From the NCBI GenBank assembly GCA_022841645.1, contig JALHRC010000002.1, positions 36,846 to 100,845 of the forward strand: 64,000 nt of DNA, in the 5' to 3' direction. Shown here piece after piece: positions 11,014-57,095 of the stretch. Position numbers and translations under genes: made by a program. Numbering within the stretch: the first letter of the stretch is position 1; every line of letters starts with the position of its first letter. Origin of the DNA: Minisyncoccota bacterium (lineage in GTDB: Bacteria; Patescibacteriota; Minisyncoccia; Phycocordibacterales; UBA918). A model generated the notes under the pieces. It was given only the letters and a program-made list of their open reading frames with translations, was not told where the DNA came from and ran no database searches.

Positions 11014-11033
11014 GTATAGCATATATGCTATAC
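11014..11033. repeat. 20-bp perfect palindrome GTATAGCATATATGCTATAC (CATATATG core), followed by the short tandem repeat tagtagtagtatag
   Basis: Read directly from the sequence. It lies in the 400-nt gap between the TlpA-like gene and the AI-2E transporter. One of three palindromes in the window that share this core. Confidence 0.6.
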
Positions 11034-11369
11034 TAGTAGTAGTATAGTTCGCTCGCAAAGAAGGTGGCGCGACCCGGCATCATTACATGCGCTCATGTCA
11101 TCGTCAGACATGAGTTTCGGATCGCAACCACCACTTCTATGCGCAGCGCAATTGGGTTCTTGATCATTCTATGGGGGCTTGCACACTTTTTTTCAACCGC
11201 ATTCTCGCAGCTTGAGACCACTGCCACGTCAGCGCTGCAAACAATTGCAGTGGCGGCCGAAGTCTCGCGCGAAGCCATGCTTGAAACCAAGTAGCCCTCC
11301 TATCCACCCGACCACTGCATCAGCAGTGGTCTTGTTGCCTATGGAGGTGTTACTATAGGTGAACGTTGT

Positions 11370-12434
11370 ATGCCCAACCTTCGACAGGTCATTGAGTATG
11401 TGTTCTTCTTCGCACTCCTTCTAGCCGCCGGCTACATGGTGTGGCTGATAGTCGCACCATTTTTCTCAGCCTTGGCCCTCGCGCTTATTATAGTGATTAT
11501 TTGCTATCCACTCTACGAGCGTATTTTAAAAGTTACCCCACGCCAAAATCGTACACTGGCTTCACTTCTCACAACTCTGCTAGTGATCGTGGTCGTAGTT
11601 TTGCCGATTACACTTATTTCCTCCACGCTGGTGCGAGAAGCGGTCACCTTTTACCAAAGTATCGGTACGGGTGAAGATCTTGCCATTGAGCAGTACGCTA
11701 GTGACTTTGAGATGATGGTGCAGCGTTACATTCCTGAGTTTGAGCTCAATATTACTGACCAGCTCCGCCAAAGCGCTGCCTGGCTTACCCGCAATCTTGG
11801 TGCTATCTTTGCCGGCACGGTTTCGACACTCTTTGTCTTTTTCATTGCGCTCATAGGCTCTTTCTATTTCTTCCGAGACGGACGGGAGTTTGTAAAACTG
11901 CTCATAAAAATCAGCCCGCTCCCCGAGCAAGAAGACAGTGTTATCATGGCTCGGCTTGTGCAGGCAGTACGCTCGGTGGTGACCGGCACAGTTTTGATTG
12001 CGCTCATCCAGGGCACTTTGGCTGCGATTGGATTTACGATTTTTGGAGTGCCACAGGCAGTCCTGTGGGGTTCGTTGGCTGCCGTTGGTGCCCTCATTCC
12101 TGGCATTGGCACAACCGTGGTTATAGTCCCGGCAATGGTGTACCTTTTTGCAACTGGTGAGCCTGGTAGCGCAATTGGCCTTCTTATCTGGGGTGCAGTG
12201 GTAGTGGGCACCATCGATAATTTTCTCGGCCCTTATCTCATGAGTCGTGGCAACAAACTTCATCCATTCATAACGCTCATATCTGTCCTTGGAGGTATGG
12301 CGCTGTTTGGGCCCATTGGCTTTATCATCGGCCCTGTCATCATGGTGCTGTTTATGGTGCTTCTTGAAATCTATCACCAGTATGTAGTAAGAAGTGAGCG
12401 ACCACTGGTTGGCCTCGATGATATGCCCTCTTAA
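11370..12434 (+). CDS. AI-2E family transporter (PerM/UPF0118-type permease)
   Basis: 354 aa, about 8 predicted TM helices. The N-terminal pattern (VWLIVAPFFSALALALIIVIICYPLY..) and overall topology are typical of AI-2E family proteins. Confidence 0.75.
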   Translation: MPNLRQVIEYVFFFALLLAAGYMVWLIVAPFFSALALALIIVIICYPLYERILKVTPRQNRTLASLLTTLLVIVVVVLPITLISSTLVREAVTFYQSIGTGEDLAIEQYASDFEMMVQRYIPEFELNITDQLRQSAAWLTRNLGAIFAGTVSTLFVFFIALIGSFYFFRDGREFVKLLIKISPLPEQEDSVIMARLVQAVRSVVTGTVLIALIQGTLAAIGFTIFGVPQAVLWGSLAAVGALIPGIGTTVVIVPAMVYLFATGEPGSAIGLLIWGAVVVGTIDNFLGPYLMSRGNKLHPFITLISVLGGMALFGPIGFIIGPVIMVLFMVLLEIYHQYVVRSERPLVGLDDMPS

Positions 12435-12442
12435 GCGCTTTT

Positions 12443-12877
12443 ATGTTTGATCGAAAGCACATCGAACGACTCCTCGCAATCAATGGGGTTTTACCAACTG
12501 CATCCGACGACGAGATCAGAGAGGCTTTATTTGGTGCGCATTACCGTGAAGATGAGGCGACGTTGGCTCTCGCGGTACTTCGTGAGTCAAGCGTAGTATC
12601 ACAAAAAAGTGACGGTGCTGAAAAACTTGTGCACACTGACGGCGTACTTAATCCAAAGGAAATTTCGGCGCTACTTGGGATTGATGTGAGTGTTAAGCCT
12701 CTCAGTCGCCCAGACACACGTCGCGAGCAGGTTAGTCTGAGCAGTGCTCATCACTTGGTGATCTGGCTTTTAGCCATCGCAGCATCCCTTACGGGTGTAG
12801 TGCTTGCTATGTACTTGCTTGAGTTTGGCATTTTTCACCCTACAACAGCTGGGTTTATGTATGAGTGGGGAGACTGA
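12443..12877 (+). CDS. Hypothetical protein with a C-terminal TM helix
   Basis: 144-aa ORF. C-terminal TM LVIWLLAIAASLTGVVLAMYLL. Confidence 0.45.
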   Translation: MFDRKHIERLLAINGVLPTASDDEIREALFGAHYREDEATLALAVLRESSVVSQKSDGAEKLVHTDGVLNPKEISALLGIDVSVKPLSRPDTRREQVSLSSAHHLVIWLLAIAASLTGVVLAMYLLEFGIFHPTTAGFMYEWGD

Positions 12878-13964
12878 GTGCGTGCGGTACCTGCGCCCAC
12901 TTGCACTGTTGTGCGCCTTTCTCTCGGCTGGTGCTCTCTGGTCGTACACGAGCACGGTGTATTCGCCCGTGGCGCCATTATTGCTAGCGCCGTCTGTGAC
13001 AGAGCCACATGCGATGGCTGAAGTTACGGGAACAACTACGCTGTGGTTTTTGGGCGACGTAATGCTCTCACGACAAGTTGGTCGTTTCGCTCGTGAGCGC
13101 TCTCCTGATTATCCATGGCAGCGCATCAATGGAACTTTTGCCGAGGCGTATGTAATTGCTAATTTCGAATCCTGCCTTTCAAAAACGCAAACGTTCTCGA
13201 ACGAAGCACAGCTGCGCTTTCCGGTTGACCCAAGTTTAGTGTCGAGTATACAGCGCGCTGGTGTGACGCACGTCTCGCTCGCCAACAACCACAGTCTCGA
13301 TTGTGGACCGGCTGATTATCAATACACAAAAGCAGCTATGGCCAGTTCTGGAATAGTCGCCTTTGGTCATGGTGTCCGTACCGACAGTGAAAGTGTTACC
13401 TATATTGAAATAGGGACGTCCACCGTTGCCCTTATCGGCATACACACGCTATTTGTCTCTCCTGATCTTTCTAGCTTGCGCACGCTACTTACACAAACAG
13501 ACTTGAAAAGTGACTTTCAGATTGTCTACATACATTGGGGCAATGAGTATGAACTTGTAAGCAGTCGCGCCCAGCAGACGCTGGCTACCGAGCTAGTAGC
13601 TGCCGGCGCCGATCTCATAGTTGGCCACCATCCACACGTCGTACAGGAAATTGGACTGATTAACGGTGTGCCAGTTGTGTACTCACTTGGCAACTTTATT
13701 TTCGACCAATACTTTAGCGTGGAAGTGCAACGCGGACTCATGCTAAAGCTCGAGTGGTTACCCACCCCCACACTATCCCTTCACCCCATCACCAGTGCTG
13801 ACTCGCGCACCCAACCGCGCTCTATGACCGCAGATGAAAGAGTAGAATTTTTGAAGAGTGTAGCATTGCGTAGCGATCCAATGCTACGTAGCTACGTGGC
13901 GGTCGGCGTGCTACCGCTTCATCTACTTGCAACATCCTCAAAAAGCGCTATTATTGTGCAATAA
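12861..13964 (+). CDS. CapA/PgsA-family metallophosphatase (poly-gamma-glutamate biosynthesis CapA-like), stand-alone
   Basis: Motifs LWFLGDVMLSR, IHWGNEY, DLIVGHHPHVVQEI, YSLGNFIFDQ. The start is ambiguous among 12804, ATG 12861 and GTG 12882, which lies just after the upstream stop. N-terminal signal-like segment. Confidence 0.7.
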   Translation: MSGETECVRYLRPLALLCAFLSAGALWSYTSTVYSPVAPLLLAPSVTEPHAMAEVTGTTTLWFLGDVMLSRQVGRFARERSPDYPWQRINGTFAEAYVIANFESCLSKTQTFSNEAQLRFPVDPSLVSSIQRAGVTHVSLANNHSLDCGPADYQYTKAAMASSGIVAFGHGVRTDSESVTYIEIGTSTVALIGIHTLFVSPDLSSLRTLLTQTDLKSDFQIVYIHWGNEYELVSSRAQQTLATELVAAGADLIVGHHPHVVQEIGLINGVPVVYSLGNFIFDQYFSVEVQRGLMLKLEWLPTPTLSLHPITSADSRTQPRSMTADERVEFLKSVALRSDPMLRSYVAVGVLPLHLLATSSKSAIIVQ

Positions 13965-13974
13965 AAATGGTCAT

Positions 13975-14514
13975 ATGGTAAGTAAATTCGAAGCAATCGG
14001 GCTGGGGGCGAGCGTTATCTTAATGGCAGTAGCGCTGTACCTTTTGCGTGTGGAAACGACTATTTTGGGGGTAGCCACTTCAGGTGAGCAAACAGCAGCG
14101 GCACTGAGCACTGTGGTTGTAGAGGGCGATGGTACTACTGGCACAGCGCGTGTTGATGCACTGATGGATGCTGTCGACTCTCAAGGTCGTGTCACTCGCC
14201 TTGTTGTGGAAGACATCACTCCGGGCACTGGTGCTGAGGCAAAAGTAGGCGACACGCTTCTCGTGCACTATATTGGCACTCTTCAAGATGGCACGGAGTT
14301 TGATAATTCGCAGAAGCGGGGCGCTCCCTTTGCCGTCACTCTCGGTGAGGGTCGCGTCATCGCTGGTTGGGAACAGGGTCTTCTTGGTATGAAAGCTGGT
14401 GGACAGCGCATTTTGGTGATTCCAGCGTCGCTTGGCTACGGCGAGCGCGCCATGGGTCCTATCCCACCAAACTCCACGTTGGTCTTCTCCATTGAACTTG
14501 TGAGTATTGAGTGA
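13975..14514 (+). CDS. FKBP-type peptidyl-prolyl cis-trans isomerase with an N-terminal TM anchor
   Basis: C-terminal FKBP domain (GDTLLVHYIGTLQDGTEFDNS...GWEQGLLGMKAGGQRILVIPASLGYG). The ORF track starts at TTG 13927. The first ATG at 13975 follows the upstream stop at 13964. Confidence 0.8.
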   Translation: MVSKFEAIGLGASVILMAVALYLLRVETTILGVATSGEQTAAALSTVVVEGDGTTGTARVDALMDAVDSQGRVTRLVVEDITPGTGAEAKVGDTLLVHYIGTLQDGTEFDNSQKRGAPFAVTLGEGRVIAGWEQGLLGMKAGGQRILVIPASLGYGERAMGPIPPNSTLVFSIELVSIE

Positions 14515-15722
14515 TGACTGATCGACCTGTTACATTTGAAACTATAAAGCAAAAGCCCGGGAGTCTCGCCCGGGCTGGTGTTATTCATACCCCGCATGGC
14601 GACATTGAAACACCGGCTTTTGTGGCTGTGGGCACGCGTGGCACTATCAAGTCTTTAAAGCCATCTGACCTAGAAGAGCACGTGGGCATACAAGCAATTA
14701 TTTCGAACACCTACCATCTTTTTCTCCAGCCTGGTCACGAGTTGATCAAGACCGCTGGTGGGATTCATACATTTGCCAACTGGAAGACACCTACGATGAC
14801 CGACTCGGGCGGTTTCCAAGTATTTTCTCTGGGGGCTGCCTTTGGTAAAGGGGTGACTAAGTTTGCCAAAGGTGATCTCGAGGCGACTGAGCAGTATCAC
14901 GGCCTCAATGTCTACACCAAGGAGCTAGCGAGCGTCCATGGCAAGCTCTGCATTGTTGACGAAGATGGGGTAACCTTCACCTCTCACATCGACGGCAGTA
15001 TGCACCGCTTCACCGCCGAGCGCTCGATTGAAATTCAACACGCCATCGGTGCCGATATTATCGTGGCGTTTGATGAATGCACCAGTCCTACGGCCGACTA
15101 TGCCTACCAAAAGGAAGCGATGGACCGTACGCACCGTTGGGCCAAGCGCAGTATCAGCGCTCACCGTCTCAACTATGAGGCGCAAAAGAAGCAAGGGCTC
15201 TACGGTGTCGTGCAGGGAGGGCGACATTTTGACCTTCGCGCGGAAAGCGCCCGCACCTTAGCCGCTATGGACTTTGACGGTTATGGTATTGGCGGTTGTT
15301 TCAGTAAGGATGATCTTGGTGAGGCACTACGCGTAGTGAATGAAAACTTGCCCGAGGATAAACCCCGTCACCTTTTAGGCATTGGCGAACCGGAAGACAT
15401 TATAGAAGGGGTGGCCATGGGCTGCGATACCTTTGACTGCGTTGCGCCGACGCGCCTGGCGCGCACCGGTACTATTTATATCCACACGAGTGAAGGGCCC
15501 AAGAAAATTAGCCTCAAGGGTGAGAAGTATAAATACGACCTCTCACCACTCGATGAATCGCTCAATTGTGAAATCAGCCGCACCACTACCAAGGCCTATC
15601 TCTCGCACCTCTTCCGCAGCCATGAGATGCTCGCGGCGCACCTGGCGTCCATTCACAACCTTCATTTTATTGTTAACTTTACTAAGCGGTTACGCGAAAA
15701 TTTGCTTTCTGGTACACTTTAA
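14511..15722 (+). CDS. tgt: Queuine tRNA-ribosyltransferase (tRNA-guanine transglycosylase)
   Basis: Motifs DSGGFQVFSLG, HLLGIGEPEDII and the N-terminal GVIHTPHGDIETPAFVAVGT. The usual CxCxxC...H zinc-site residues are only partly retained. Confidence 0.8.
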   Translation: MMTDRPVTFETIKQKPGSLARAGVIHTPHGDIETPAFVAVGTRGTIKSLKPSDLEEHVGIQAIISNTYHLFLQPGHELIKTAGGIHTFANWKTPTMTDSGGFQVFSLGAAFGKGVTKFAKGDLEATEQYHGLNVYTKELASVHGKLCIVDEDGVTFTSHIDGSMHRFTAERSIEIQHAIGADIIVAFDECTSPTADYAYQKEAMDRTHRWAKRSISAHRLNYEAQKKQGLYGVVQGGRHFDLRAESARTLAAMDFDGYGIGGCFSKDDLGEALRVVNENLPEDKPRHLLGIGEPEDIIEGVAMGCDTFDCVAPTRLARTGTIYIHTSEGPKKISLKGEKYKYDLSPLDESLNCEISRTTTKAYLSHLFRSHEMLAAHLASIHNLHFIVNFTKRLRENLLSGTL

Positions 15723-15737
15723 AGATTCGTAATTGCT

Positions 15738-17816
15738 GTGCTGCAGGAATCGCTAGTCATGTTTAAAATCTCCACTGAAAAAACACCGGCTGGTGACCAG
15801 CCAAAGGCGATTGAGGCCCTCATAAAGGGTGTTGAAGCTGGACATGTGCACCAGACGCTTTTAGGTGTGACCGGCTCGGGTAAAACTTTTACCGCGGCTA
15901 ATGTCATTCAGCACGTCCAAAAGCCAACGCTCGTGATTGCCCACAATAAAACGCTAGCTGCTCAACTGGCGCAAGAGTACCGCGACTTCTTTCCTGAAAA
16001 TGCTGTGCACTATTTTGTCTCCTACTACGATTACTACCAGCCGGAGGCCTATATGCCGACTTCGGACACCTACATCGAGAAGGAAGCGATGATCAACGAA
16101 GAAATCGATCGTCTTCGTCACGCCTCTACGCAAGCACTGCTTACGCGGCAAGACGTGATCATTGTGGCCTCGGTCTCGTGTATTTACGGTCTTGGTTCAC
16201 CAAAAGAATACATGAAGGTACACCGCAAGATCGAGCGTGGCTACGAAACTACCCGCACTGACATGCTGCGGGTACTGGTTGATATGTACTTTGAACGTAC
16301 GAACGCCGACCTCACCCCTGGCCACTTCCGGGCGGTGGGTAACACGATTGAGATTATGCCTACCAACGAACGCACTATTTATCGCCTTGGCTTTGTGGGT
16401 AACCAAGTCTCTGAGATCACCCGTATCGACGGCATTACGAGGGCCATTATCGACGAGCCAGATGTCTTTTTTCTGTTTCCGGCCAAGCACTTTGTGACGC
16501 CTGAAGACGAACGTAAAGTAGCGATGGCCGATATAAAGCTCGAGCTCGATGAGCAGCTTAAGAAATTTAAAGCAGAAGGGAAGCTTCTCGAGGCCGAACG
16601 GCTACGCCGCCGTACCGAACACGACCTGGCGCTTATCCGCGAGGTGGGGTATTGCAATGGTATCGAAAATTATTCGCGCCATTTTGATCGCCGTCAGCCA
16701 GGTGAGGCACCGTACACGTTGCTGTCCTACTTTCCACACACCAAGGACGGAAAGCCAGACTTTCTCACCATTATCGACGAGTCACACGTCACTATTCCAC
16801 AGATTGGCGGTATGTACGCTGGTGATCGCTCGCGTAAGGATACGCTTGTAGAGCACGGCTTTCGCCTGCCGAGCGCAATCGACAACCGCCCGCTCAATTT
16901 CGCTGAGTTTGAAGAGCGGGTAGGGCAGCGCATTTATACATCAGCCACTCCGGGAAAATACGAATACGCCCAAGCAGAAAAAACTCAGGTGCCCATGGTC
17001 GAGCAAATCATTCGCCCGACCGGGCTTATCGACCCCGAAATCGATATGCGACCCGTCACTGAAAAGGGCACCTACCCGGGACAGATCAAGGATTTTATTG
17101 AAGAGGCAGTAAAGGTAATCAAAGGTGGTGCTCGAGTACTTACCACCACCCTCACCAAAAAAATGGCCGAGGATTTGGCTGAGTTCCTTTCCGAGCGAAA
17201 TATTAAAACCAAGTACATCCACAGCGATGTTGATACTCTCGAGCGCATTGAAATTCTCACCGACTTCCGCAAGGGGGTGTTCGATTGCTTGGTGGGCGTC
17301 AACCTGTTGCGCGAAGGGCTCGATCTCCCCGAAGTGGAACTGGTCGCTATTCTTGATGCCGACAAGGAAGGTTTTTTGCGTAGCCCGACAGCGCTCATCC
17401 AAACTATCGGTCGGGCAGCCCGTAATGTACGTGGGCGCGTGGTGCTGTACGCCGACGAAATGACAGCCGCCCTCACGTACGCAGTGTCAGAAACCAATCG
17501 TCGCCGCTCGCTCCAGCTGGCGTATAACGAGAAGCACGGCATCACCCCCACAACAATTGCTAAGGAAATTAAATCAATTGCTGACCAATTACGCACAGAG
17601 CACGATGAAACAATCGACACGCTCCTTAAGGTTGATATGGCGCTCTTCGAGGAGAATCCAAAGGCAGTAATGGCTGACAAACGTCGGCAAATGGAGGAGG
17701 CGGTAGCAATTTTAGACTTTGAAACCGCCGCTATCATTCGCGATGAGATAAAAGTCCTCGAAGAATCGCAAAAAGGGAAGAAGGGCAGGGGCAAAGTACC
17801 TCGTCGCAAAAAATAA
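15738..17816 (+). CDS. uvrB: Excinuclease ABC subunit B
   Basis: Walker A TGSGKTFTAANVI. The UvrB beta-hairpin region YFVSYYDYYQPEAYMP. Helicase motifs. C-terminal UvrBC interaction segment (DFETAAIIRDEI). Confidence 0.9.
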   Translation: MLQESLVMFKISTEKTPAGDQPKAIEALIKGVEAGHVHQTLLGVTGSGKTFTAANVIQHVQKPTLVIAHNKTLAAQLAQEYRDFFPENAVHYFVSYYDYYQPEAYMPTSDTYIEKEAMINEEIDRLRHASTQALLTRQDVIIVASVSCIYGLGSPKEYMKVHRKIERGYETTRTDMLRVLVDMYFERTNADLTPGHFRAVGNTIEIMPTNERTIYRLGFVGNQVSEITRIDGITRAIIDEPDVFFLFPAKHFVTPEDERKVAMADIKLELDEQLKKFKAEGKLLEAERLRRRTEHDLALIREVGYCNGIENYSRHFDRRQPGEAPYTLLSYFPHTKDGKPDFLTIIDESHVTIPQIGGMYAGDRSRKDTLVEHGFRLPSAIDNRPLNFAEFEERVGQRIYTSATPGKYEYAQAEKTQVPMVEQIIRPTGLIDPEIDMRPVTEKGTYPGQIKDFIEEAVKVIKGGARVLTTTLTKKMAEDLAEFLSERNIKTKYIHSDVDTLERIEILTDFRKGVFDCLVGVNLLREGLDLPEVELVAILDADKEGFLRSPTALIQTIGRAARNVRGRVVLYADEMTAALTYAVSETNRRRSLQLAYNEKHGITPTTIAKEIKSIADQLRTEHDETIDTLLKVDMALFEENPKAVMADKRRQMEEAVAILDFETAAIIRDEIKVLEESQKGKKGRGKVPRRKK

Positions 17817-17889
17817 GCCGCCACTCTAGGCAAAAGTTATCGACAGCGCGCGACATTTAGGGTCGCGCTTAGAGCTATACTGTACACAA

Positions 17890-27604: not shown

Positions 27605-27705
27605 TGGACGCGGCTCGTGGTTACTCGCGCCAGGAACGCGCTCGTAACAACACTCCGCCGGTTCGAATCCTCACGCACAGTGCACTGGCACTGTGCTTCG
27701 GGTCC
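27605..27705 (+). pseudogene. tRNA-like remnant. Its acceptor-like 5' end GGACGCG, the 13-nt T-arm match GGTTCGAATCCTC and TCGGGTCCA are identical to the tRNA-Ala(TGC) 3' end, and a 25-nt hairpin insertion splits them
   Basis: 27657-27669 matches the T-arm of the adjacent tRNA-Ala exactly, and 27697-27705 matches its acceptor 3' end. The D-arm and T-stem cannot pair (2 of 5 bp). The intervening GCACAGTGC-ACTG-GCACTGTGC is a perfect 9-bp hairpin. I judge it non-functional. Confidence 0.3.
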
Positions 27706-27710
27706 ACGAA

Positions 27711-27744
27711 CAAAAAACGCACCCTTGTGGGGTGCTGCTTTTTG
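27711..27744. terminator. Bidirectional rho-independent terminator (AAAAAAC GCACCC ttgt GGGTGC TGCTTTTTGT)
   Basis: GC-rich 6-7 bp stem with an A-run on one side and a T-run on the other. Sits immediately 3' of the minus-strand tRNA-Ala(TGC). Confidence 0.55.
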
Positions 27745-27750
27745 TACTCG

Positions 27751-27823
27751 TGGACCCGAGAGGATTCGAACCCCCCGCCTCCTCAGTGCAAATGAGGCGC
27801 TCTACCAAATGAGCTACGGGCCC
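27751..27823 (-). tRNA. tRNA-Ala (anticodon UGC)
   Basis: The reverse complement folds as a canonical 73-nt cloverleaf: acceptor GGGCCCG/CGGGTCC with the G3:U70 alanine identity pair, D-arm GCTC-ATTTGGTA-GAGC, anticodon loop TTTGCAC, T-loop GGTTCGAATCC, discriminator A. CCA is not encoded. Confidence 0.9.
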
Positions 27824-29190: not shown

Positions 29191-29220
29191 ACCACTGTTA
29201 TCATATATGATAACAGTGGT
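29191..29220. repeat. 30-bp perfect palindrome ACCACTGTTATCATATATGATAACAGTGGT
   Basis: Perfect inverted repeat centred on CATATATG, about 90 nt upstream of tRNA-Ala(GGC). Followed by a second small palindrome CAAAAAACTTTTTTG-like at 29224-29237. Confidence 0.6.
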
Positions 29221-29307: not shown

Positions 29308-29380
29308 GGGCCCTTAGCTCATCCGGTAGAGCGCTTCCATGGCATGGAAGAGGTGAGCGGTTCAAGTCCGCTAGGGTCCA
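29308..29380 (+). tRNA. tRNA-Ala (anticodon GGC)
   Basis: 73-nt cloverleaf: acceptor GGGCCCT/AGGGTCC with G3:U70, D-arm GCTC-ATCCGGTA-GAGC, anticodon loop ATGGCAT, T-arm AGCGG-TTCAAGT-CCGCT, discriminator A. No encoded CCA. Confidence 0.9.
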
Positions 29381-29414
29381 CGAGTATATTTCACGGAGCA
29401 AATATTTGTACAAA

Positions 29415-29707: not shown

Positions 29708-30256
29708 ATGGAACATAATCACTCAACATCAAGTGCAATAAAAATTCATCACGTAGCAAAAGTAAGTGTGTGGTCATACTGGCCGATCACTACCATATAC
29801 TTGGTGGCGGCACTTATTTCGCTTTATTCGGTACAATTTCACGCCTACCCTGACTATATGTCACACCTTATGGGCTGGGTTCTGATATTCTTTGGGGTCA
29901 TCAAGCTATCCGATGTAGTTGGATTTGCAGAGGGATTTGCAATGTACGATCCACTGGCAAAACGAAACATCGTTTATGCTCAGGTATACCCTTTCTTAGA
30001 GATCACTCTCGGTATTCTCTTTATACTTCAAGTTCTGATTCTACCTGCTACTCTCATCACTTTGTTTATCTATAGTGCTAGCCTTATCGGCGCTTTACAG
30101 TCAATGGTTAAAAAAGAAACCCTGCACTGCGTGTGTCTCGGGACCTACTTCAAACTTCCGCTCTCGACCGTCACCATTATTGAGGCAATCTTTATGATAA
30201 TGATGTGTCTTTGGATGTTAGCAATGTTTAACAGTATGACCATGATGGTTATGTAA
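29708..30256 (+). CDS. Hypothetical integral membrane protein (4-5 TM helices), co-transcribed with csoR; possibly a DoxX/MauE-like or metal-handling membrane protein
   Basis: Start is 2 nt after the csoR stop. Multiple TM helices. Conserved Cys pair (HCVCLGTYF). Confidence 0.55.
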   Translation: MEHNHSTSSAIKIHHVAKVSVWSYWPITTIYLVAALISLYSVQFHAYPDYMSHLMGWVLIFFGVIKLSDVVGFAEGFAMYDPLAKRNIVYAQVYPFLEITLGILFILQVLILPATLITLFIYSASLIGALQSMVKKETLHCVCLGTYFKLPLSTVTIIEAIFMIMMCLWMLAMFNSMTMMVM

Positions 30257-30267: not shown

Positions 30268-30927
30268 ATGAAAAATCAATCAATCGCAATAATTATTGGA
30301 CTCGGAATCTTAGTCGTTGGTGCCGTAGCGTATAGTTTTGGTGCAAATAAGGATACTGATACCAAAATGGGTATGAATATGGGTGATGACGTACCAGTAG
30401 GGATGCACCGTATGCCAGATGGTTCACTAATGGGTAACGCCCCTGCAAACAACGACATGGGTATGATGGGTGGTATGGATCACTCAATGATGATGGTAAA
30501 GAGTGAACGAGAGTTTCTTAAGGGTATGATTCCACACCACCAAGAAGCAGTTGATACTGCCAAGCAGGTGATCGCTCGTGGCGGTTCAACTCCCGAAATC
30601 AAGAAACTAGCTGAAGACATCATCGTGGCACAAGAGAAAGAGATCGCTATGATGAAGGAGTGGTATCAGGCGTGGTACGGGGAAGCATATGTAGCTGATC
30701 CTAAAGACTACAAACCTATGATGCGTGACCTCTCAACTCTCAGGGGAGCTGCTCTAGATAAGGTCTTTCTCGAAGATATGGTTATGCACCACATGGGAGC
30801 AATAATGATGGCACAAAGTGTACAACCATACATAGAAAATCAAGAAATCACAGATCTGACCAAGGCAATTATGGAGACGCAGGCAGCGGAGATAGAATTA
30901 ATGCGACAGATGCTTAAAACCTTGTAA
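30268..30927 (+). CDS. DUF305-family protein with a Met/His-rich (MxxM-type) N-terminal copper-binding region, secreted or membrane-anchored
   Basis: N-terminal TM/signal. The Met-rich stretch MGMNMGDDVPVGMHRMPDGSLMGNAPANNDMGMMGGMDHSMMM. Paired DUF305-like motifs MIPHHQEAVDTAK and MVMHHMGAIMMAQ. Confidence 0.7.
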   Translation: MKNQSIAIIIGLGILVVGAVAYSFGANKDTDTKMGMNMGDDVPVGMHRMPDGSLMGNAPANNDMGMMGGMDHSMMMVKSEREFLKGMIPHHQEAVDTAKQVIARGGSTPEIKKLAEDIIVAQEKEIAMMKEWYQAWYGEAYVADPKDYKPMMRDLSTLRGAALDKVFLEDMVMHHMGAIMMAQSVQPYIENQEITDLTKAIMETQAAEIELMRQMLKTL

Positions 30928-31053: not shown

Positions 31054-31095
31054 AAACTAAAGGCACACCCATAACAATGGGTGTGCCTTTAGTTT
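31054..31095. terminator. 19-bp perfect-stem hairpin (AAACTAAAGGCACACCCAT aaca ATGGGTGTGCCTTTAGTTT); possible bidirectional terminator or recombination site
   Basis: Read directly from the sequence. Lies 127 nt after the DUF305 gene. The flanks are only moderately T-rich. Confidence 0.4.
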
Positions 31096-42306: not shown

Positions 42307-42348
42307 GAATTAAAACAGCCCCGCCTTTTAAAGCGGGGCTGTTTTAAT
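42307..42348. terminator. Bidirectional rho-independent terminator (TTAAAACAGCCCCGC-cttttaaa-GCGGGGCTGTTTTAA)
   Basis: Perfect GC-rich stem of 13-17 bp, flanked by A/T runs, between convergent genes. Confidence 0.7.
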
Positions 42349-42358
42349 TGTTGCTGAC

Positions 42359-48016: not shown

Positions 48017-48601
48017 ATGAGTATCCCCAAGAAGATCGTCGTTCTTTGTGGTCACCCCGACAAAGATTCATTTTCTGGAACGGTGGCCGACCACTACCAG
48101 GCAGGGGCACAGGACGCCGGACACGAAGTGCGCCGCGTCAATATTGGGGAACTACAATTTGACCCCATTCTTCACAAAGGTTACAAGGAAATTCAACCCC
48201 TTGAGCCCGATCTTCATGCTTTGCAGGATTCTTTTCGCTGGGCTGACCATATTGTAATTGTGTACCCCAACTGGTGGTGTACTATGCCCGCAATCTTAAA
48301 AGGGCTATTTGACCGTTTTTGGCTACCGGGTTTTGCGTTTAATTTCAACAAGGAAACAAAGAAAGTTGAGCAGCACCTGAAAGGGAAGACGGGGCGGGTC
48401 ATTATTCTCTCTGGATCGCACTCGCCTTTTAAAATGTGGTGGCTGTTTGGTGATTACACCAACGAAATCCAATACGGCATTATGGAGTTTGCTGGAATCA
48501 AGACCGACGTGAGTTCCTATGGACCGTGTGAGCGGGTTGATGAGAAATGTCGTGATAGTTGGATGAAGGAAGTAGAACGACTAGGGGCAAAAGGAGCCTA
48601 A
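48017..48601 (+). CDS. NAD(P)H dehydrogenase (quinone)-like flavodoxin-fold oxidoreductase
   Basis: N-terminal KIVVLCGHPDKDSFSGTVADHY and IVIVYPNWWCTMPAILKGLFDRF, typical of the Flavodoxin_2/NQO family. Confidence 0.75.
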   Translation: MSIPKKIVVLCGHPDKDSFSGTVADHYQAGAQDAGHEVRRVNIGELQFDPILHKGYKEIQPLEPDLHALQDSFRWADHIVIVYPNWWCTMPAILKGLFDRFWLPGFAFNFNKETKKVEQHLKGKTGRVIILSGSHSPFKMWWLFGDYTNEIQYGIMEFAGIKTDVSSYGPCERVDEKCRDSWMKEVERLGAKGA

Positions 48602-48630
48602 AAATAAGGCTCCTTTTGCTTGCTTTTTTA
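48589..48630 (+). terminator. Rho-independent terminator (AAAAGGAGCC-taaaaataa-GGCTCCTTTT followed by GCTTGCTTTTTT)
   Basis: 10-bp stem overlapping the stop codon, followed by a T-tract. Confidence 0.7.
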
Positions 48631-49303: not shown

Positions 49304-49311
49304 GCGTTGCG

Positions 49312-49350: not shown

Positions 49351-49400
49351 TTTTGTTTATACCCAAGCCGCAGTATGCACTGCTGTGGTACCATAAGCAG

Positions 49401-50237: not shown

Positions 50238-50286
50238 GGGTATACATGATTTTCAAACGAGCAGAACTCTGCTAAGGTGGTGAGCT

Positions 50287-51384: not shown

Positions 51385-51416
51385 GACGCGTGAAGTACCA
51401 AGATCTCTCGCCACCA

Positions 51417-51445
51417 AAAACGCCACCCTTTTAGGGTGGCGTTTT
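51417..51445. terminator. Bidirectional rho-independent terminator (AAAACGCCACCC-tttta-GGGTGGCGTTTT), nested in a larger palindrome
   Basis: Perfect 12-bp stem flanked by A and T runs, between convergent ychF and the giant minus-strand gene. Confidence 0.7.
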
Positions 51446-51476
51446 GGGTGGCGAGATGCCCAACAATGGTACCTCT

Positions 51477-54400
51477 CTACCAGTCGTAGTTAAGTAGGGC
51501 GCGTGTTTGCGGCCCAACTGAGCCTGTTACAGTGAGGCCACGAGCTGCCTGGTACGCTTCTACAGCTTCTGTAGTAGCGTTATCGAAGTGACCTGTTACC
51601 GCTCCCGTGTAGTGACCGAGATCGGTCAAGAGCCACTGCAACGCCTCTACCTCATCGCCAGTAGCTCCTGCAGACAGTAATTGGGTGAAGTTTACTACCC
51701 GAGCAATACCTTGAACCTGGGCGCGCGGGTCACTTGCAATACCGCCCCAATCCGTTGCTGTAAGGTAGAACCACTGACCAATATTATTTTGGAAGTACGC
51801 CCTACCGTTGTAAATGAGGATAAGAACGCCCTCTCCTGTATAGCGTGAAGTTGAGCCGTTAAGTGCGATACGGTGTCCTAGACTATCGAAGTTCCCAAAC
51901 GACCAGCGGTTACCGGCAGCATCGGTTACAAAGCCACCTTGCTGTGGTTCCAAAGTAAGGCTTGTCCCGCCCGAACCACTAATAGACGGTGTGGGGCTAG
52001 TTGCAACTGGCTGCGGCACGTCCTCATTGAGCGGTTCGTCAGGGTCATTACCAATCACAAACCTAGCATCACCATTACTCCTAAGCGTGCTCGCCATATT
52101 TTGGTCAACGCCATTGAGAGCAACTGACTTAACATACAAGTTGCGGTCGGCGTCAGATGAACCACCCCAGGCATCATTGTAGTAGCGTACTACTAGGGTG
52201 CGTTCAGCACTCGTGAAGTCTCCCTTCACGTCAACATAGGTGATTTGCGAACGACGATTCTCTGCAAACACTGATCCGCCACCTATCTTCCTGCCATCAA
52301 GAAGGAGATCATACTGCGGTGGTGACACCCAAATATCTCCAGAGAGCGCGAGGCGCACCGTGTCGCTACCGGCACCAAACACAAGGACTTCAGAATTTGA
52401 TGATGGTGGTAGTTCCTCCTCATCTACAGGAACTGGTGGGGTACTAGTGGGTCCGCTACTACTATTCCAGCGACTACCACTGTAGGTAAACCATTTACCA
52501 TTAGTGTTTTGTGCGTACACTCGACCGCCGTTAGCAATGAGAAGGAGCACACCCGACGCCCCTCTAGTTAACGTGCCGTTGAGTGCAATGCGATGTCCGC
52601 TCGGACCGCTGCGCTCGCTGAATGTCCAGTTACCATGCTGAGAACGCACACTACCACCACTCAGCGGAGAAATTGAGCTGCCGTCTGGCGAAAGGGTTTC
52701 AGGGTCTCCGATTGATGTTCCTGGTGCGTCCGTAACAGCCACTGTCACTTCCTTAGTTGTTACTCCACTTAGATTTGCGCAGGTGACCTTGTAGGTTGTG
52801 CTCTGCAGTGGCGAGACAGTTGCACTGCCGCTCGTGCCAACCAGGGTAAAGCCCGAGGTAGCACATGTCGCAGCATCAGTACTTACCAGTGTGAGCGTAG
52901 TGCTCTGTCCCTTCTGAATACTGGTAGGGTTTGCTGTCAGCGAAGCAGTCGGAAGGGGTATGTTTGGGGTAGTGGTCTTAGTAAGGTAGGTCTCAACACT
53001 CCAACCATCAACGGTGGAGCTATCAAAATCGATTTTCCACCAGTTCTCGCCGTCAGCGACTTGCGAAGCCTCTAGCACTGCGCCGCGCGCGCCGAGTGGC
53101 TGGGTTCCGAGAAGCGAACCAGTCAAACTAGCAATGCTGCGCACATTAAGAACACTAGTTGTTTCGACACGATCGCCTGACTTAAAGAGGGTGCTTACCA
53201 CAGGAACCGACACGGTGACCGTGGTCTCAGCGCTGACCGTGCCACCACCACCAGTGCAGGTCACTTTGTAGGTGGTGGTTTCTGTCGGCATCACCGGAAG
53301 AAGACCACTTGTGCCCGAGACGGTAACTCCCGTGCCGGTACAACTTGTCACATTTTGGGTTACTAAAGTCAGAATGCTAGTCTGACCCCGTAGGATAGAA
53401 GAGGGAGTGGCAGTGAGACTGACTGTACTCACGGTCTCATTTCTTGAAATCACAAAGCTGGCTTCGCCATTTTGGGTAAGGCGCGCCGAGCGATTGAGAT
53501 CGCTGTCATTGAGTGCTAGTGACTTTACGTACAGGTTACGGTCGGTGTCAGATGAGCCCCCCCACGCATCATTATAGAATTGAATGACGAGGGTGTGCGA
53601 CCGGCCGTCACTGAAGTCGCCGTGGACATTGATGTATTCAATCTGGCCAAGCTTTTCATTGGCTGCTACTCGACCACTGCCGATGTTTTTGCCATCAAGC
53701 AGCACATTGAAGCCCGGCAGATCGCCCCACAGGTCACCTGAGAGACCTACCTTCAAAATATCTGAGCCCTCACCAAACTTAGTGGGGTCAGTTGGAACGG
53801 TAGGGGTAGTGGGGGTAGTCGGGGTAGTAGGCTCGGTTGGTGCGGTAGGGGTAGCGGGGGTGCGGGGGTCACCACCATAGTGGGGACGCCAGTCATTATT
53901 TTCCCAGTAGTACCACCAATCCCTCTTCGTGGCCAAAAAGGCCCTTCCTCCATTGAGGATGTAGATGCCGGTACCGTACCCACCACCAGCTGGGTTTCCG
54001 TTGAGATACGTGCGGGTACCCAGATCATTTGTTTCCGTGCCAAAAGTCCACACGCCTTCCGGAGTAGAAACTGAAGTTCCTCCAGGCACAAGGACTGAAC
54101 CATCAGGTGATACAGGGTTAGCACTGAAGCGGATTCGCTTGAGGTCACCAGCAAAGTCAAGTGGCCCACCGGCTCCGGTGCATATAACCATGTAATCTGA
54201 CTGCTTTTTGGGAGTAACCTTTATACTGCCGCTCGTACTATTTACTACAAAATCAGGATCAAGACTTGTTCCCGTACACCTCCGAGCATTTTGACTCGAC
54301 CATGTAAGTGTAACCTGTTCACCATCTACCACCAGAGAACGATCGCTGGTAAGAGTAACTCTGACCGTGGTGGGTGCCATAGGAGCGATGGGTTGTTTTG

Positions 54401-56477
54401 GCACAATGTTAAAGGTTGGTTCCTTGGACATATTAGCGGCATCAGTATATGAAGGTTGCGCAGTCTTAAGCCACGCATAGGCCTTCTTAGCGTTTTCATC
54501 ACCAAGCGTATCAGCAAGCAGCGCCATGCTCATGATTCCAAGCTGACCAAAGTAACCATTGCTCTGCGTCCAGCCGCTGAAACCATTCGAGTCCCAGGCG
54601 ATTCCATGAGCACCCATATCACGCCAACTGGTAAGTCGCTTATATTCACCAGTTGGTTGCCTGGGATTGTTTGGAATATTGTGATTTACACCATCGCGCG
54701 GATTAAAGCCATTGTCAGCATTCATGAAGCGTCCCACATACCAATTCTTTGACCACTCCAGATACGGCTTCACATTGGTAAAGCCAAAGTTATAGGCTTG
54801 TACCAAAGTCGAAAGAAGAAAATCATTCTGCCATGGTGACATCGCTTGATTGTTCCAATAGGCATAACCTAGATTGTACCCGTGAATGTCTCCCTGTAGC
54901 GTAGTACGTGATGCCATCTGACTCTTTAACCACTCAATGTTGTTGTTCGAAATTTTAGTGAAGTAGGTTTTTTCTGGTGAACCATCAGGGTTAGCCCACG
55001 CTGCTTGAATCACTCCACGAAGACCCCAGGCACCGCCACGTATCTCAAAGGCACTTGATACAATAATGCCCTTTTCGTGAAATCGAGCATTTCCATATTC
55101 CTCTCCCGACGGCCACGATGACATAATGTTCCATGAGGCAGCAGCGTTGAGTTGATCAAGCAGATAGCGCTTGCCAGTGAAGAGGTACGGAACAAAATTG
55201 AGACTCGGCTGGTGTGAGCTGTCGGGACCCCAGCCATGGCCATCAGCAGGAAGTTGGGTAGGGCGGCCACTGTTTCGATCGCCCGGTACACCAGCAGGCT
55301 CACCGCGTCCATCAATCCACAACTTAGGGTAGTGATCAGTGTTCAACCAGGTGTTGTTAGCGGCGTCCCAGTAGTGCCAAGTGATGGCAGCAGCACCATT
55401 GGCTTGACCGAGACCCATCTTCGCTGAAATAGGGTGCTGCGTCATGATCCAAGCGGTGTTCCAGAGAGTGTGAACGCCAATGTCTGGACGGCCGCCAGCC
55501 ATTCCCATTGCCTTCGCGATCCAGTTTGCCTCAAATGGCTTATTCCAGTTAGCACTACTGACCGCTTCGTTCATCCGGTTAATGAGACTTTGATCAACCC
55601 CGTTAGTGAGATCATAGTTCGCTACCGCCCCCGTACTGATGATGTAGGGTACGTCACGCTGTACGTTTATCTCGGCCGACGCCGGCTTGCTCCAGACCTC
55701 TTGGTGCCATTGCTGGTACTGGTAGTGGGTGAGGGTTGGGTGACTTACGACAGTTCTACCATCGTTGCTAATCGTGGCCGCATATCTGAGGGTGCCGCCC
55801 GTTGCCGTCATGGCCCGGTCATTGTTAAACATGATGTCAGCCCAGTAGGTACCGTCACTGTACTTTGCGAGGTCGACGACGAGACGCAGTGAGGAGGTGA
55901 CGTAGATGTCGATGCGGCCTTCGGTCACGATGGGTCCTTGGCGCCAGTAGGTGACTTTGCCAGCTGCAAGTTCCCGGGCAAAGATGCTCGCGAGGTCGTA
56001 GGTGAAGGTCCCACCACCTTGGATGGCGATAGTGACGTCCATATCAAGACCGGAGAGGCTCGAAAGAGAAATCGGGGTGCCGCTCTTAGCGGCACTCATG
56101 AGCATGGAAGGATTTGCGGTGTTGGCAGAAAGGGTGGGGGCGACTGCCGAGACGACGCCAAACTTCACCGAACCGTCAGCATGGCGGGTCTTCACGTCAA
56201 TCTGGGCGGGAATGGTGCTGCCGTTCACCTTGAGAGCAACACCACTGTTGCCCCCGAGGTCACCTTCTTTAAAGACCTGGCCGAACTGGACGGGACCAGA
56301 GGGTATGCTGGTGCTCGTAGGGTTTTGGAGGTTCATCCCGACGATGTCAGTACTCCCTGAGGGTTGGGGGACGGAAGGGGCTTTGACCTGGGCGTGGGTG
56401 GTGATAGGAAGAATGAGCGCGCCAGCTAACAGTAGTAGGAAGGGGAGAATAAAAGAGGGGCGAGAAGAAGTAATCAT
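51477..56477 (-). CDS. Giant secreted multidomain protein (about 1666 aa). It has a large N-terminal uncharacterised domain, two CBM-like ~120-aa repeats, Pro/Thr-rich linkers, an SH3b-like domain and a C-terminal PG_binding_1-like domain
   Basis: Signal peptide MITSSRPSFILPFLLLLAGALILPITTHA. The ORF track start 56531 is 18 codons further upstream. Repeats YNDAWGGSSD(T/A)DRNLYVKS(L/V)ALN occur twice. SH3b-like LNVRSIASLTGSLLGTQPLGARGAVL...WWKIDF. C-terminal LQWLLTDLGHYTGAVTGHFDNATTEAVEAYQAARGLTVTG. Confidence 0.85.
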   Translation of the reverse strand: MITSSRPSFILPFLLLLAGALILPITTHAQVKAPSVPQPSGSTDIVGMNLQNPTSTSIPSGPVQFGQVFKEGDLGGNSGVALKVNGSTIPAQIDVKTRHADGSVKFGVVSAVAPTLSANTANPSMLMSAAKSGTPISLSSLSGLDMDVTIAIQGGGTFTYDLASIFARELAAGKVTYWRQGPIVTEGRIDIYVTSSLRLVVDLAKYSDGTYWADIMFNNDRAMTATGGTLRYAATISNDGRTVVSHPTLTHYQYQQWHQEVWSKPASAEINVQRDVPYIISTGAVANYDLTNGVDQSLINRMNEAVSSANWNKPFEANWIAKAMGMAGGRPDIGVHTLWNTAWIMTQHPISAKMGLGQANGAAAITWHYWDAANNTWLNTDHYPKLWIDGRGEPAGVPGDRNSGRPTQLPADGHGWGPDSSHQPSLNFVPYLFTGKRYLLDQLNAAASWNIMSSWPSGEEYGNARFHEKGIIVSSAFEIRGGAWGLRGVIQAAWANPDGSPEKTYFTKISNNNIEWLKSQMASRTTLQGDIHGYNLGYAYWNNQAMSPWQNDFLLSTLVQAYNFGFTNVKPYLEWSKNWYVGRFMNADNGFNPRDGVNHNIPNNPRQPTGEYKRLTSWRDMGAHGIAWDSNGFSGWTQSNGYFGQLGIMSMALLADTLGDENAKKAYAWLKTAQPSYTDAANMSKEPTFNIVPKQPIAPMAPTTVRVTLTSDRSLVVDGEQVTLTWSSQNARRCTGTSLDPDFVVNSTSGSIKVTPKKQSDYMVICTGAGGPLDFAGDLKRIRFSANPVSPDGSVLVPGGTSVSTPEGVWTFGTETNDLGTRTYLNGNPAGGGYGTGIYILNGGRAFLATKRDWWYYWENNDWRPHYGGDPRTPATPTAPTEPTTPTTPTTPTVPTDPTKFGEGSDILKVGLSGDLWGDLPGFNVLLDGKNIGSGRVAANEKLGQIEYINVHGDFSDGRSHTLVIQFYNDAWGGSSDTDRNLYVKSLALNDSDLNRSARLTQNGEASFVISRNETVSTVSLTATPSSILRGQTSILTLVTQNVTSCTGTGVTVSGTSGLLPVMPTETTTYKVTCTGGGGTVSAETTVTVSVPVVSTLFKSGDRVETTSVLNVRSIASLTGSLLGTQPLGARGAVLEASQVADGENWWKIDFDSSTVDGWSVETYLTKTTTPNIPLPTASLTANPTSIQKGQSTTLTLVSTDAATCATSGFTLVGTSGSATVSPLQSTTYKVTCANLSGVTTKEVTVAVTDAPGTSIGDPETLSPDGSSISPLSGGSVRSQHGNWTFSERSGPSGHRIALNGTLTRGASGVLLLIANGGRVYAQNTNGKWFTYSGSRWNSSSGPTSTPPVPVDEEELPPSSNSEVLVFGAGSDTVRLALSGDIWVSPPQYDLLLDGRKIGGGSVFAENRRSQITYVDVKGDFTSAERTLVVRYYNDAWGGSSDADRNLYVKSVALNGVDQNMASTLRSNGDARFVIGNDPDEPLNEDVPQPVATSPTPSISGSGGTSLTLEPQQGGFVTDAAGNRWSFGNFDSLGHRIALNGSTSRYTGEGVLILIYNGRAYFQNNIGQWFYLTATDWGGIASDPRAQVQGIARVVNFTQLLSAGATGDEVEALQWLLTDLGHYTGAVTGHFDNATTEAVEAYQAARGLTVTGSVGPQTRALLNYDW

Positions 56478-56670
56478 GAATATATTTTTAAAGGTAAACT
56501 TTGTACGACAACTTGCGTCCACCACGCACACAAGCTTTTACAGCACGTCTGATTAAATTTTGTAATGTTTCATCAATAACGAACAAGACCTTCCAGGCCT
56601 ATACCTGAAAGTAAGAGTAGCAGGTGAGAGGCTGCTACACACAGCCTTGTCCCCACGTTATGCACAGTGC

Positions 56671-56964
56671 TTAGCTTTTACCACTAGGTCGATTGAGTCG
56701 TTGCACCGGGCTCACTACATTAGGGTTCCACTGCGCGGTGATTGCTCCATGCTCTTTTTCAAACTCTGCTACTTGATGAGCAAGGTACTGCGCAAACCGC
56801 TTGGCGTGCTGTGGAGTGATGGCGTAGACCACACCCGCCTCACCAGAACTGAGTGCCATAGCAAAATACTCAGGTGTATAAGCAAGTTGAATAGACTCAC
56901 AAAACTCTTTTGGCTCGTTGCGAAAATCTTCAGCTGAAAGTGGCATACCGAGATATTCTATCAT
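56671..56964 (-). CDS. Hypothetical protein (97 aa)
   Basis: ORF divergent from leuS. No SD and no recognisable motif. Confidence 0.4.
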   Translation of the reverse strand: MIEYLGMPLSAEDFRNEPKEFCESIQLAYTPEYFAMALSSGEAGVVYAITPQHAKRFAQYLAHQVAEFEKEHGAITAQWNPNVVSPVQRLNRPSGKS

Positions 56965-57055
56965 GTCATTTTGACAAGAAAACTTTGCTAAAACTTTGGT
57001 ACCAATACTAAATTAAAATTAGCGCTATCTTGCCTATTTTCTGCGCTCAACAGTT

Positions 57056-57095
57056 AGATTCTTCTTACTATCATATATGATAGTAAGAAGAATCT
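57056..57095. repeat. 40-bp perfect palindrome AGATTCTTCTTACTATCATATATGATAGTAAGAAGAATCT in the divergent promoter region upstream of leuS
   Basis: Perfect 19+19 arms around AT, read directly from the sequence. The CATATATG core is shared with the palindromes at 11014 and 29191. Confidence 0.65.

Follow-up and report, generated by a model that had tools for sequence, protein, structure and literature searches.

Perfect intergenic palindromes in a Minisyncoccota genome as putative operators of a Trp repressor-family regulator conserved in Paceibacteria

The Trp repressor TrpR and its relative HisR (YerC) bind 20 bp palindromes as dimers and often autoregulate (PMC9413887). The present analysis concerns a family of perfect palindromes first seen in a 64,000 nt stretch of DNA from a Minisyncoccota bacterium (Patescibacteriota, lineage UBA918; GenBank assembly GCA_022841645.1, contig JALHRC010000002.1, positions 36,846 to 100,845 of the forward strand), hereafter the window, in which three intergenic sites share one centre. 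From its conservation and its gene neighbourhood across many genomes, this shared centre is quite likely the operator of a homodimeric helix-turn-helix (HTH) regulator of approximately 139 aa, which belongs to the Trp repressor/YerC family and is conserved in the Paceibacteria of the Candidate Phyla Radiation (CPR). Members of the CPR are mostly uncultivated and have very few regulators, and to our knowledge almost nothing is known of transcriptional regulation in this group. A literature search returned no paper on a TrpR-like regulator in Patescibacteria or on CPR palindromes of this kind.

The sequences and coordinates of the three sites are exactly those of the original prediction. Site 1 (11014-11033) is a 20 bp perfect palindrome, GTATAGCATATATGCTATAC, with an arm of 10 and a variant core, TAGCATATATGCTA; site 2 (29191-29220) is a 30 bp perfect palindrome, ACCACTGTTATCATATATGATAACAGTGGT, with an arm of 15; and site 3 (57056-57095) is a 40 bp perfect palindrome, AGATTCTTCTTACTATCATATATGATAGTAAGAAGAATCT, with an arm of 20. 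A scan of the whole window identified these as its longest zero-loop perfect palindromes, the runner-up having an arm of 8. First-order Markov simulation of the window (50 runs) gave a maximum arm of 7-9 in 46 runs, of 10 in three and of 11 in one. The core itself exceeds chance frequency, CATATATG occurring three times in the window (0.62 expected) and each time at one of the three palindrome centres, and relaxed pattern searches of the window gave no further credible sites. All three sites lie outside coding sequence. The central 20 bp of site 3 (57066-57085) are identical to TACTATCATATATGATAGTA, the consensus core of the family, and constitute a putative operator; the predicted hairpin of this site has a free energy of -16.2 kcal/mol as DNA and -24.3 kcal/mol as RNA. 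The inner 14 bp of site 2, TATCATATATGATA, are also those of the family core, and its positions 8-9 from the centre differ (TG for CA). Site 1 is probably a weak or variant member of the family.

The three palindromes are not assembly artefacts. Sites 1 and 2 and both of their flanks were recovered at 100% identity in Logan contigs from at least seven samples of one study (L126 and L128-L130 for site 1, L122-L124 for site 2), and no strain polymorphism was detected at these two sites among 11 Logan contigs of the same population, L126 carrying four mismatches elsewhere. The Logan contig with leuS (L001) starts at 57066, which is the first 31-mer not wholly within the 40 bp palindrome; such a break is expected because a genuine 40 bp palindrome breaks a de Bruijn graph of k=31. 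It was also observed that many short-read contigs start or end in or beside such palindromes, including L345-L347 (25 nt before the ATG of the regulator gene), L257, L244, L228, L233 and L234. De Bruijn assemblies break at perfect palindromes that exceed k, and CPR metagenome-assembled genomes (MAGs) may be fragmented systematically at these sites.

An exact search of metagenome contigs with TACTATCATATATGATAGTA returned 118 stretches with GC contents of 0.28-0.56, where few at most would be expected by chance, and several of the contigs carry 2-4 copies within 1 kb. Conservation covers positions 1-10 of each half in 136 non-redundant instances; farther out, from position 11, the sequence varies while the two arms stay complementary. 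The core of the family is a palindrome of 18-20 bp with the consensus ACTATCATATATGATAGT, of which the inner TCATATATGA is the most conserved part, and its sites are found in every gene arrangement, many of them directly beside stop codons. The closest LeuS relatives of the window belong to Candidatus Paceibacteria, Parcubacteria and Kaiserbacteria MAGs, with at most 77% identity (at most 76% among named GTDB genomes). In 1.32 Mb scanned around leuS in 80 related genomes, two further long perfect palindromes with the same centre were found, both in two of the closest named relatives, L212 (50 bp, AAAACAAAAAAGAAATACTATCATATATGATAGTATTTCTTTTTTGTTTT) and L209 (36 bp, CAAAAACTTACTATCATATATGATAGTAAGTTTTTG), whose LeuS proteins are 74-76% identical to that of the window. 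The 20-mer TACTATCATATATGATAGTA is common to site 3 and both relatives, and site 3 and L209 have 24 bp in common at only 74% LeuS identity. The L212 and L209 palindromes are orthologous and follow the order S49 peptidase, ychF, palindrome and a convergent DUF3467 gene; in the window, ychF is followed by a different, GC-rich hairpin, and the palindrome lies on the opposite side of the DUF3467 gene. In all three genomes the DUF3467-like gene, on the minus strand in each (window 56671-56964, L212:5609-5983 and L209:5137-5406), borders the consensus palindrome, which lies 5' of it in the window and 3' of it in L212 and L209.

In viral contigs, matches to the 14-mer core extend only at the chance rate, and the core by itself therefore does not bring long arms. 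A few viral contigs contain 28-40 bp perfect AT-rich palindromes centred on TATCATATATGATA (L059:2552-2579 and L061:5936-5975, which are giant-virus MAG contigs, and L051:7410-7439), and these are probably unrelated AT-rich hairpins. No phage link emerged: the 18-mer gave two viral matches, and L331 (24,019 bp, with the same site context) is apparently the metagenome contig L250.

One gene accompanies the palindromes. It encodes a protein of approximately 139 aa of the Trp_repressor family (PF01371) and is the sole strongly recurrent neighbour (18 non-redundant cases). Of the 118 motif-selected loci (0.74 Mb in total), 25 contain this gene, and it is missing from all 80 LeuS-anchored control loci (1.32 Mb). 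In the typical case its start codon is 15-21 nt away from a palindrome centre and another palindrome lies beyond its stop codon. When loci were picked by the protein alone (P0124, P0140, P0171, P0207, P0213, P0235, P0231, P0196 and P0199, with 45-87% identity, in loci L333-L340 and L344), the gene was bracketed by such palindromes, one upstream and one just past the stop, in nine of nine cases. In the close relative JBKBPM01, the L209 palindrome and the regulator gene (P0124, L333) are located on a single 676 kb contig. In the S10 cluster the gene separates rplB from rpsS or rplC from rpsJ; at other loci it is flanked by dnaG-rpoD and rpoC, by uvrB and uvrA, or by rpe and the transketolase gene, or it follows the genes for RRF and an M50 peptidase. 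Its synteny is kept within sub-clades, as RRF-M50-regulator (L333/L339), dnaG-regulator-rpoC (L334/L335) and rpe-regulator-tkt (L340/L344). Its place within or between these conserved clusters varies by clade, and it is sometimes on the opposite strand (L217:8263-10352; L336:8206-11388; L334/L335 at about 10001; L337 at about 10001; L340/L344).

Other neighbours of the palindromes include dnaG and murC and, in the window, leuS and tRNA-Ala. Besides the regulator, one family of 295 aa proteins recurs, with five entries on four low-GC marine contigs and no Pfam hit. These proteins, of unknown function, start 18-131 nt from core palindromes in L230, L290, L294 and L315 (GC 0.30-0.35; L230 and L290 are from TARA), and the TrpR-like gene was not found in the sequence at hand for these four contigs.

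The assignment of the protein, which was examined in relatives and not in the window, rests on profile and structure comparisons alike. Proteins of L220 and L217 score 40.6 and 42.0 bits against PF01371 (E ~1e-10, gathering cut-off 27 bits), and the domain is annotated in nearly all of the 120 homologues listed. A structural model (AlphaFold2, AF2) had a predicted local distance difference test (pLDDT) value of 85.7, and its best 40 Foldseek matches in the PDB were all TrpR or YerC-like, including the operator complexes 1TRO and 1TRR, with a probability of 1.00 and target-normalised template modelling (TM) scores of 0.64-0.78; a sequence search of the PDB with the TrpR-like protein led to 3FRW and 3G1C. 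A conserved C-terminal extension, NPFGLTALKxKYPLHFLLFPWPK, is absent from structures of the 3FRW/3G1C type.

The core co-varies with the protein. Most loci have the core ACTATCATATATGATAGT, and variants are TCTATCATATATGATAGA in L333, ACTTCTATATATAGAAGT in L334, ACTACCATATATGGTAGT in L337 and CATTTCATATATGAAATG in L338, with short TCATATATGA pairs in L339 and GATATATC-centred cores at the weaker paralogues of L312 and L276. In terms of the opening residues of the predicted recognition helix, GPNT occurs with TATCATA, GAGT with TTCTATA, GYGT with TACCATA and GLST with TTTCATA, and the paralogues with GFDT and SPST helices occur with the GATATATC-centred cores. Core conservation, bracketing of a TrpR/YerC-family gene, co-variation with that gene and the precedent of PMC9413887 together argue strongly for a shared DNA-binding protein, for example a dimeric regulator, as the original prediction had proposed; its other candidate, a nucleoid protein, gained no support.

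The geometry of the sites at the regulator genes is also distinctive. The ATG is located at +18/+19 from the palindrome centre and TG-n-TAGTAT or TAGAAT at +3..+11, so that the extended -10 box lies within the operator half-site and the start codon 6-7 nt after it. A -10 box 6-7 nt before the ATG would give a leaderless mRNA and a promoter that is covered upon dimer binding. Perfect promoters, TTGACA-17-TAGTAT, are present in L250 and L260. Site 1 of the window has the layout of the regulator genes (11006..11034, plus strand), with TTGCAA, a 17 nt spacer and TGcTATACT, its -10 box lying at +6..+11 from the centre; this promoter-like arrangement is a consensus match only. That every site should be a sigma-70 promoter was ruled out, there being neither enrichment of -35 boxes nor a fixed start-codon offset save at the regulator gene.

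The arms behave differently from the core. Beyond the 20 bp core the palindrome remains perfect for a mean of 4.7 bp (maximum 16), compared with 0.4 bp by chance, and past the first mismatch complementarity falls straight to background (98 of 121 cases show no match beyond it); this sharp drop means that the palindromes are perfect, that their edges are sharp and that decayed copies are essentially absent. The orthologous palindromes of L212 and L209 have different arm sequences, each of them perfect. Three sites have asymmetric central two bases (TCAT-AC-ATGA or TCAT-GT-ATGA) and still have perfect arms, a pattern expected of a hairpin loop at the centre. In L344 and L310, the arm reaches the start codon of the regulator gene, ATGAA, which is mirrored by TTCAT, and since the mirrored side is coding, the other arm would be a reverse-complement copy of the coding side. 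The mean arm is 19.9 bp between convergent genes (n=12) and 12.0-15.8 bp elsewhere (n=79 in all; p = 1.8e-5). A role in termination at convergent genes is suggested by this difference. A- and T-tracts accompany some family members outside the window (L212, L209, L221, L258 and others). The window stems are AT-rich, unlike the G+C-rich stem followed by a T-tract of an intrinsic terminator, and a terminator role was rejected for the window sites, none of which has a T-tract or was called terminator-like by consensus scans. We infer that the arms arise by hairpin-templated copying (template switching) at the AT-centred palindrome and are retained where a stable hairpin helps. The idea of a family of hairpin-forming elements, raised at the outset as an alternative to a binding protein, is thus borne out in part, in that each copy has its own perfect arms, which are longest where genes converge.

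Further families of zero-loop palindromes, each with its own core and variable arms, were found in CPR contigs, with the cores GTACGATATATCGTAC, TATGATATATCATA, ACTATCACGCGTGATAGT, CTACTTTCACGCGTGAAAGTAG, CTACCATAT..ATATGGTAG, CCACTAGTTTTTAAAAACTAGTGG and TATTCCAGTTAACTGGAATA. Their centres are at L276:57/513/624, L327:7916, L292:120, L312:5897/6413, L334:5889, L168:~9648, L144:~1593, L283:3181/7018, L225:3340, L237:1961, L255:2063, L227:443, L301:1701, L302:737 and L304:1030. In L276 and L312 such palindromes flank the weaker TrpR-like paralogues, which suggests that several pairs of regulator and palindrome exist.

In the explanation proposed here, the regulator gene would lie elsewhere in the source genome, outside the window, and its product would bind the core, as judged from genomic association. 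In the relatives the regulator would control its own synthesis, the operator overlapping the extended -10 box 7 nt before the start codon of the leaderless gene, such that binding would occlude RNA polymerase. Further operators would lie beside scattered housekeeping genes, which in the window are leuS/DUF3467, the tRNA-Ala-csoR-copM cluster and the AI-2E transporter. The copy-specific arms would form a second layer, produced by copying one flank onto the other through template switching seeded at the AT-rich core, and would be kept where a stable hairpin is useful, in particular as bidirectional terminators between convergent genes.

Several observations weigh against this explanation. The TrpR-like gene has no tblastn match in the 64 kb window, and neither a coherent regulon nor a constant distance to gene starts, apart from the regulator gene, was found among the family sites; nor are -35 boxes enriched at 16-18 nt spacing across these sites. 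Co-variation between helix and core is imperfect, GYNT, SPGT and APGT helices still occurring with TATCATA, and the half-site spacing is ACT-N12-AGT, compared with ACT-N8-AGT in E. coli TrpR. Sites 1 and 2 depart from the consensus at positions 5 and 8-10, and among the 136 non-redundant instances a G at position 5 is found in site 1 only. These two sites may be bound weakly, by a paralogue or not at all, and site 1 may be a weak site, the site of a paralogue or merely a palindrome that overlaps a promoter. An operator by itself leaves the mirrored arms unexplained; the regulator needs no perfect flanks. T-tracts after the hairpin are not significantly enriched, family-wide, where genes read in (p = 0.3-0.4).

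A bolder form of the explanation, conceivable though in our judgement improbable, is that the palindrome is a dual-purpose CPR element, in which the operator of the regulator sits at the tip of a hairpin that is kept perfect, the arms being continually regenerated by templated copying and the hairpin or cruciform being itself functional. The extruded structure, either as DNA or as RNA off either strand, could then provide termination in both directions under the control of the regulator, insulation, or occlusion of a start codon as in L344 and L310. Regulator sites would in that case drive local palindrome growth genome-wide, and the paralogous families (cores GTACGATATATCGTAC, ACTATCACGCGTGATAGT and others) would do likewise.

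Explanations that dispense with a dedicated operator were also weighed. The palindromes could primarily be RNA or DNA hairpin elements, acting as bidirectional terminators or as processing signals with a UAUA apical loop, with the TrpR-like protein either not directly involved or reading the hairpin in place of duplex DNA. All 45 arm pairs in the window are Watson-Crick pairs and the predicted hairpins are stable; the L212 and L209 element directly follows the ychF stop codon between convergent genes, with an A-tract on its left and a T-tract on its right; and the length of the arms at convergent sites, the tolerance of an asymmetric loop and the many copies near stop codons fit such a role. 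Site 3, however, is situated between divergent starts, no window site has a T-tract or a terminator call, the enrichment of T-tracts is not significant, and the evident terminators of the window are of another class, with GC-rich stems and loops of 2-7 nt. The stems moreover contain no G-U pairs or bulges, which would be unusual under selection at the RNA level, and an 18-20 nt core that is kept across GC contents of 0.28-0.56 and co-varies with the HTH helix points to protein readout of DNA, so that hairpins as the primary function are unlikely. Less likely still is that the palindromes are copies or footprints of a mobile or selfish element spreading among CPR genomes, either similar to miniature inverted-repeat transposable elements (MITEs) or repetitive extragenic palindromes (REPs), or as a cassette of the TrpR-like gene and its palindromes. 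There are many copies in varied contexts, with an identical 20-24 bp core at approximately 75% LeuS identity, and the regulator gene is found in different places among core genes with palindromes on both sides, but only the 18-20 bp core is common while the arms are unique, and no element body, terminal inverted repeats or target-site duplication was seen. No gene for a transposase, a REP-associated tyrosine transposase (RAYT) or an HUH enzyme recurs beside the palindromes, the L212 and L209 sites are orthologous, the synteny of the regulator gene is kept in sub-clades, and sites are invariant in at least seven population samples.

A shade less probable again is that the core represents back-to-back extended -10 elements (TGnTAGTAT on both strands), that is, a bidirectional promoter with no dedicated regulator. 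The TG-n-TAGTAT at +3..+11 does resemble an extended -10 box, the regulator genes start 7 nt on, L250 and L260 have perfect promoters and site 1 matches the consensus. Yet there are only three sites per 64 kb and approximately 55 genes, -35 boxes are not enriched, the preference for T at the last -10 position is weak, many sites lie between convergent genes and the -10 box of site 2 is poor (TAACAG); furthermore, the central CATATATG and positions 8-10 are conserved far past the needs of a promoter and co-vary with the regulator. Chance, or an artefact of assembling palindromic k-mers, has a negligible probability: de Bruijn graphs can mis-traverse self-complementary k-mers, but the simulations, the recurrence of the same sequence with unique flanks in many independent assemblies and studies, and the expected k=31 break at the 40 bp site all speak against it. 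Some analogies were set aside. The core has a likeness to the LexA/SOS box of E. coli (TACTGTATATATATACAGTA), but the recurrent neighbour is TrpR-like and not lexA, and the literature search gave no such motif in Patescibacteria. The spacings of Fur, Zur and CsoR operators do not match site 2. Protelomerases, hairpin telomeres, HUH transposases and attC sites were dismissed because the palindromes have no recurrent neighbours of these kinds and their arms show no conservation.

The genes next to the window sites, with leuS, the DUF3467-like gene, the tRNA-Ala(GGC) cluster and the AI-2E transporter as candidate regulatory targets, are arranged as follows. A thiol-disulfide oxidoreductase-like gene ends 47 nt before site 1, and the gene for an AI-2E family transporter (11370..12434, plus strand) lies downstream, with a 51 aa open reading frame (~11139-11294) between the site and this gene. 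A short repeat, TAG-TAG-TAG-TA, directly follows site 1 (11034-11044), and the population contigs L127 and L131 end at 11043, which may be explained by low coverage or by variation in repeat number. Site 2 is preceded by the gene for a 159 aa protein of unknown function, with its stop codon 99 nt before the site, and is followed 88 nt downstream by the start of tRNA-Ala(GGC) (29308..29381, plus strand), after which come genes for a CsoR/RicR-like protein (to 29706), a MauE-like protein (29708-30256) and CopM (30268-30927). Site 3 occupies the divergent region between the small DUF3467-like gene on its left (56671..56964, minus strand) and leuS on its right (57261..59705, plus strand; TIGR00396, 875.8 bits), the start of leuS lying 186 nt from the palindrome centre. 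The placement of site 2 beside tRNA-Ala(GGC)/csoR and of site 3 in the leuS divergent region was correctly described from the outset.

Several other features of the window were recorded. A second alanine tRNA gene, tRNA-Ala(TGC) (27750-27823, minus strand), is divergent from tRNA-Ala(GGC) (29308-29381, plus strand) at a distance of 1.5 kb; the Logan contigs L122-L124 break inside both genes because these have k-mers in common, and an imperfect inverted repeat (27698-27759) overlaps the 3' end of tRNA-Ala(TGC). With Rfam covariance models, only the two tRNAs of the window reached the gathering score and the palindromes had no match. Two genes encode very large proteins, one of 2049 aa (378-6527, plus strand) for which no Pfam hit is recorded and another of 1684 aa (51477-56531, minus strand) with CBM60 and peptidoglycan-binding domains, which is not encoded in the syntenic region of L212 and L209. 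The protein encoded downstream of leuS (59708-60808, plus strand) has an unusual combination of sigma-70 region 4 and HARE-HTH. Long near-perfect hairpins are present at gene ends (51406-51456, 31054-31095, 42308-42349, 60856-60888 and 48587-48619), with GC-rich stems of 13-24 bp, loops of 2-7 nt and often an A-tract on the left and a T-tract on the right. They differ in class from the three AT-centred zero-loop palindromes and are probably ordinary, partly bidirectional, intrinsic terminators; the hairpin at 51406-51456, after ychF, occupies the place of the core palindrome in L212 and L209.

If the proposed explanation is correct, one conserved small CPR regulator would be linked to a sharply defined motif that can be searched in any CPR genome, with a testable regulon comprising leuS, tRNA, dnaG and murC as well as ribosomal or RNA-polymerase neighbourhoods. 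The copy-specific mirrored arms provide unusually clean natural data on the growth and maintenance of palindromes, and they suggest that compact genomes fuse operator and terminator functions in one element. The breaking of short-k de Bruijn assemblies by such palindromes also matters for the contiguity of CPR MAGs.

Among known systems, bidirectional intrinsic terminators resemble the present palindromes in being perfect inverted repeats with zero or short loops between genes, in the layout seen in L212 and L209 and in having their longest arms at convergent pairs; here, however, the stem is AT-rich and the apex conserved, the window sites have no T-tracts and site 3 lies in a divergent region. 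The correction of quasipalindromes by template switching, as formulated in the Ripley and Lovett models for E. coli, is a mutational hotspot mechanism at single loci. It would give sharp-edged perfect repeats with an uncorrected loop and one flank copied to the other, as at the mirrored start codon, but it is known for single loci and not as a genome-wide shaper of regulator sites. The DNA uptake sequences of Neisseria (DUS) and the uptake signal sequences of Haemophilus (USS) are likewise short conserved inverted repeats at intergenic, terminator-like positions. DUS and USS occur about once per kb, and CPR bacteria are thought to rely on DNA uptake. The window has three sites in 64 kb, however, the unit is itself palindromic and it is linked to an HTH regulator gene and not to competence genes. 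MITE and REP repeats are recognised by a full-length element, by terminal repeats or target duplication and by a transposase or RAYT, in contrast to a family in which only the core is common.

The closest counterparts are the TrpR/HisR (YerC) repressors (PF01371; PDB 1TRO, 3FRW, 3G1C and 3KOR), with which the CPR protein has in common a small all-helical HTH architecture of the TrpR fold. Both systems have a palindromic operator of approximately 20 bp with TACTA-like half-sites (E. coli trp operator GTACTAGTTAACTAGTAC; consensus in PMC9413887) and a site at the promoter of the regulator's own gene. The half-site is TACTAT here and TACTAG in TrpR, and the 8 bp spacer between the GNACT half-sites of E. 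coli TrpR is extended by 4 bp here (ACT-N12-AGT); the CPR protein is approximately 35 aa longer owing to its conserved C-terminal extension, and its putative operators are also located at 3' ends and between convergent genes, with copy-specific perfect arms. We know of no TrpR/HisR operators with such arm extensions. CPR genomes are generally reported to lack amino-acid biosynthesis, and the effector and regulon therefore probably differ from those of TrpR/HisR. The kind of system, a regulator of the TrpR/YerC type with its operator, is thus a known one, and what is new is a CPR-specific subfamily with a C-terminal extension, a wider half-site spacing, putative operators at 3' ends and between convergent genes in addition to those at promoters, and, most of all, copy-specific perfect arms.

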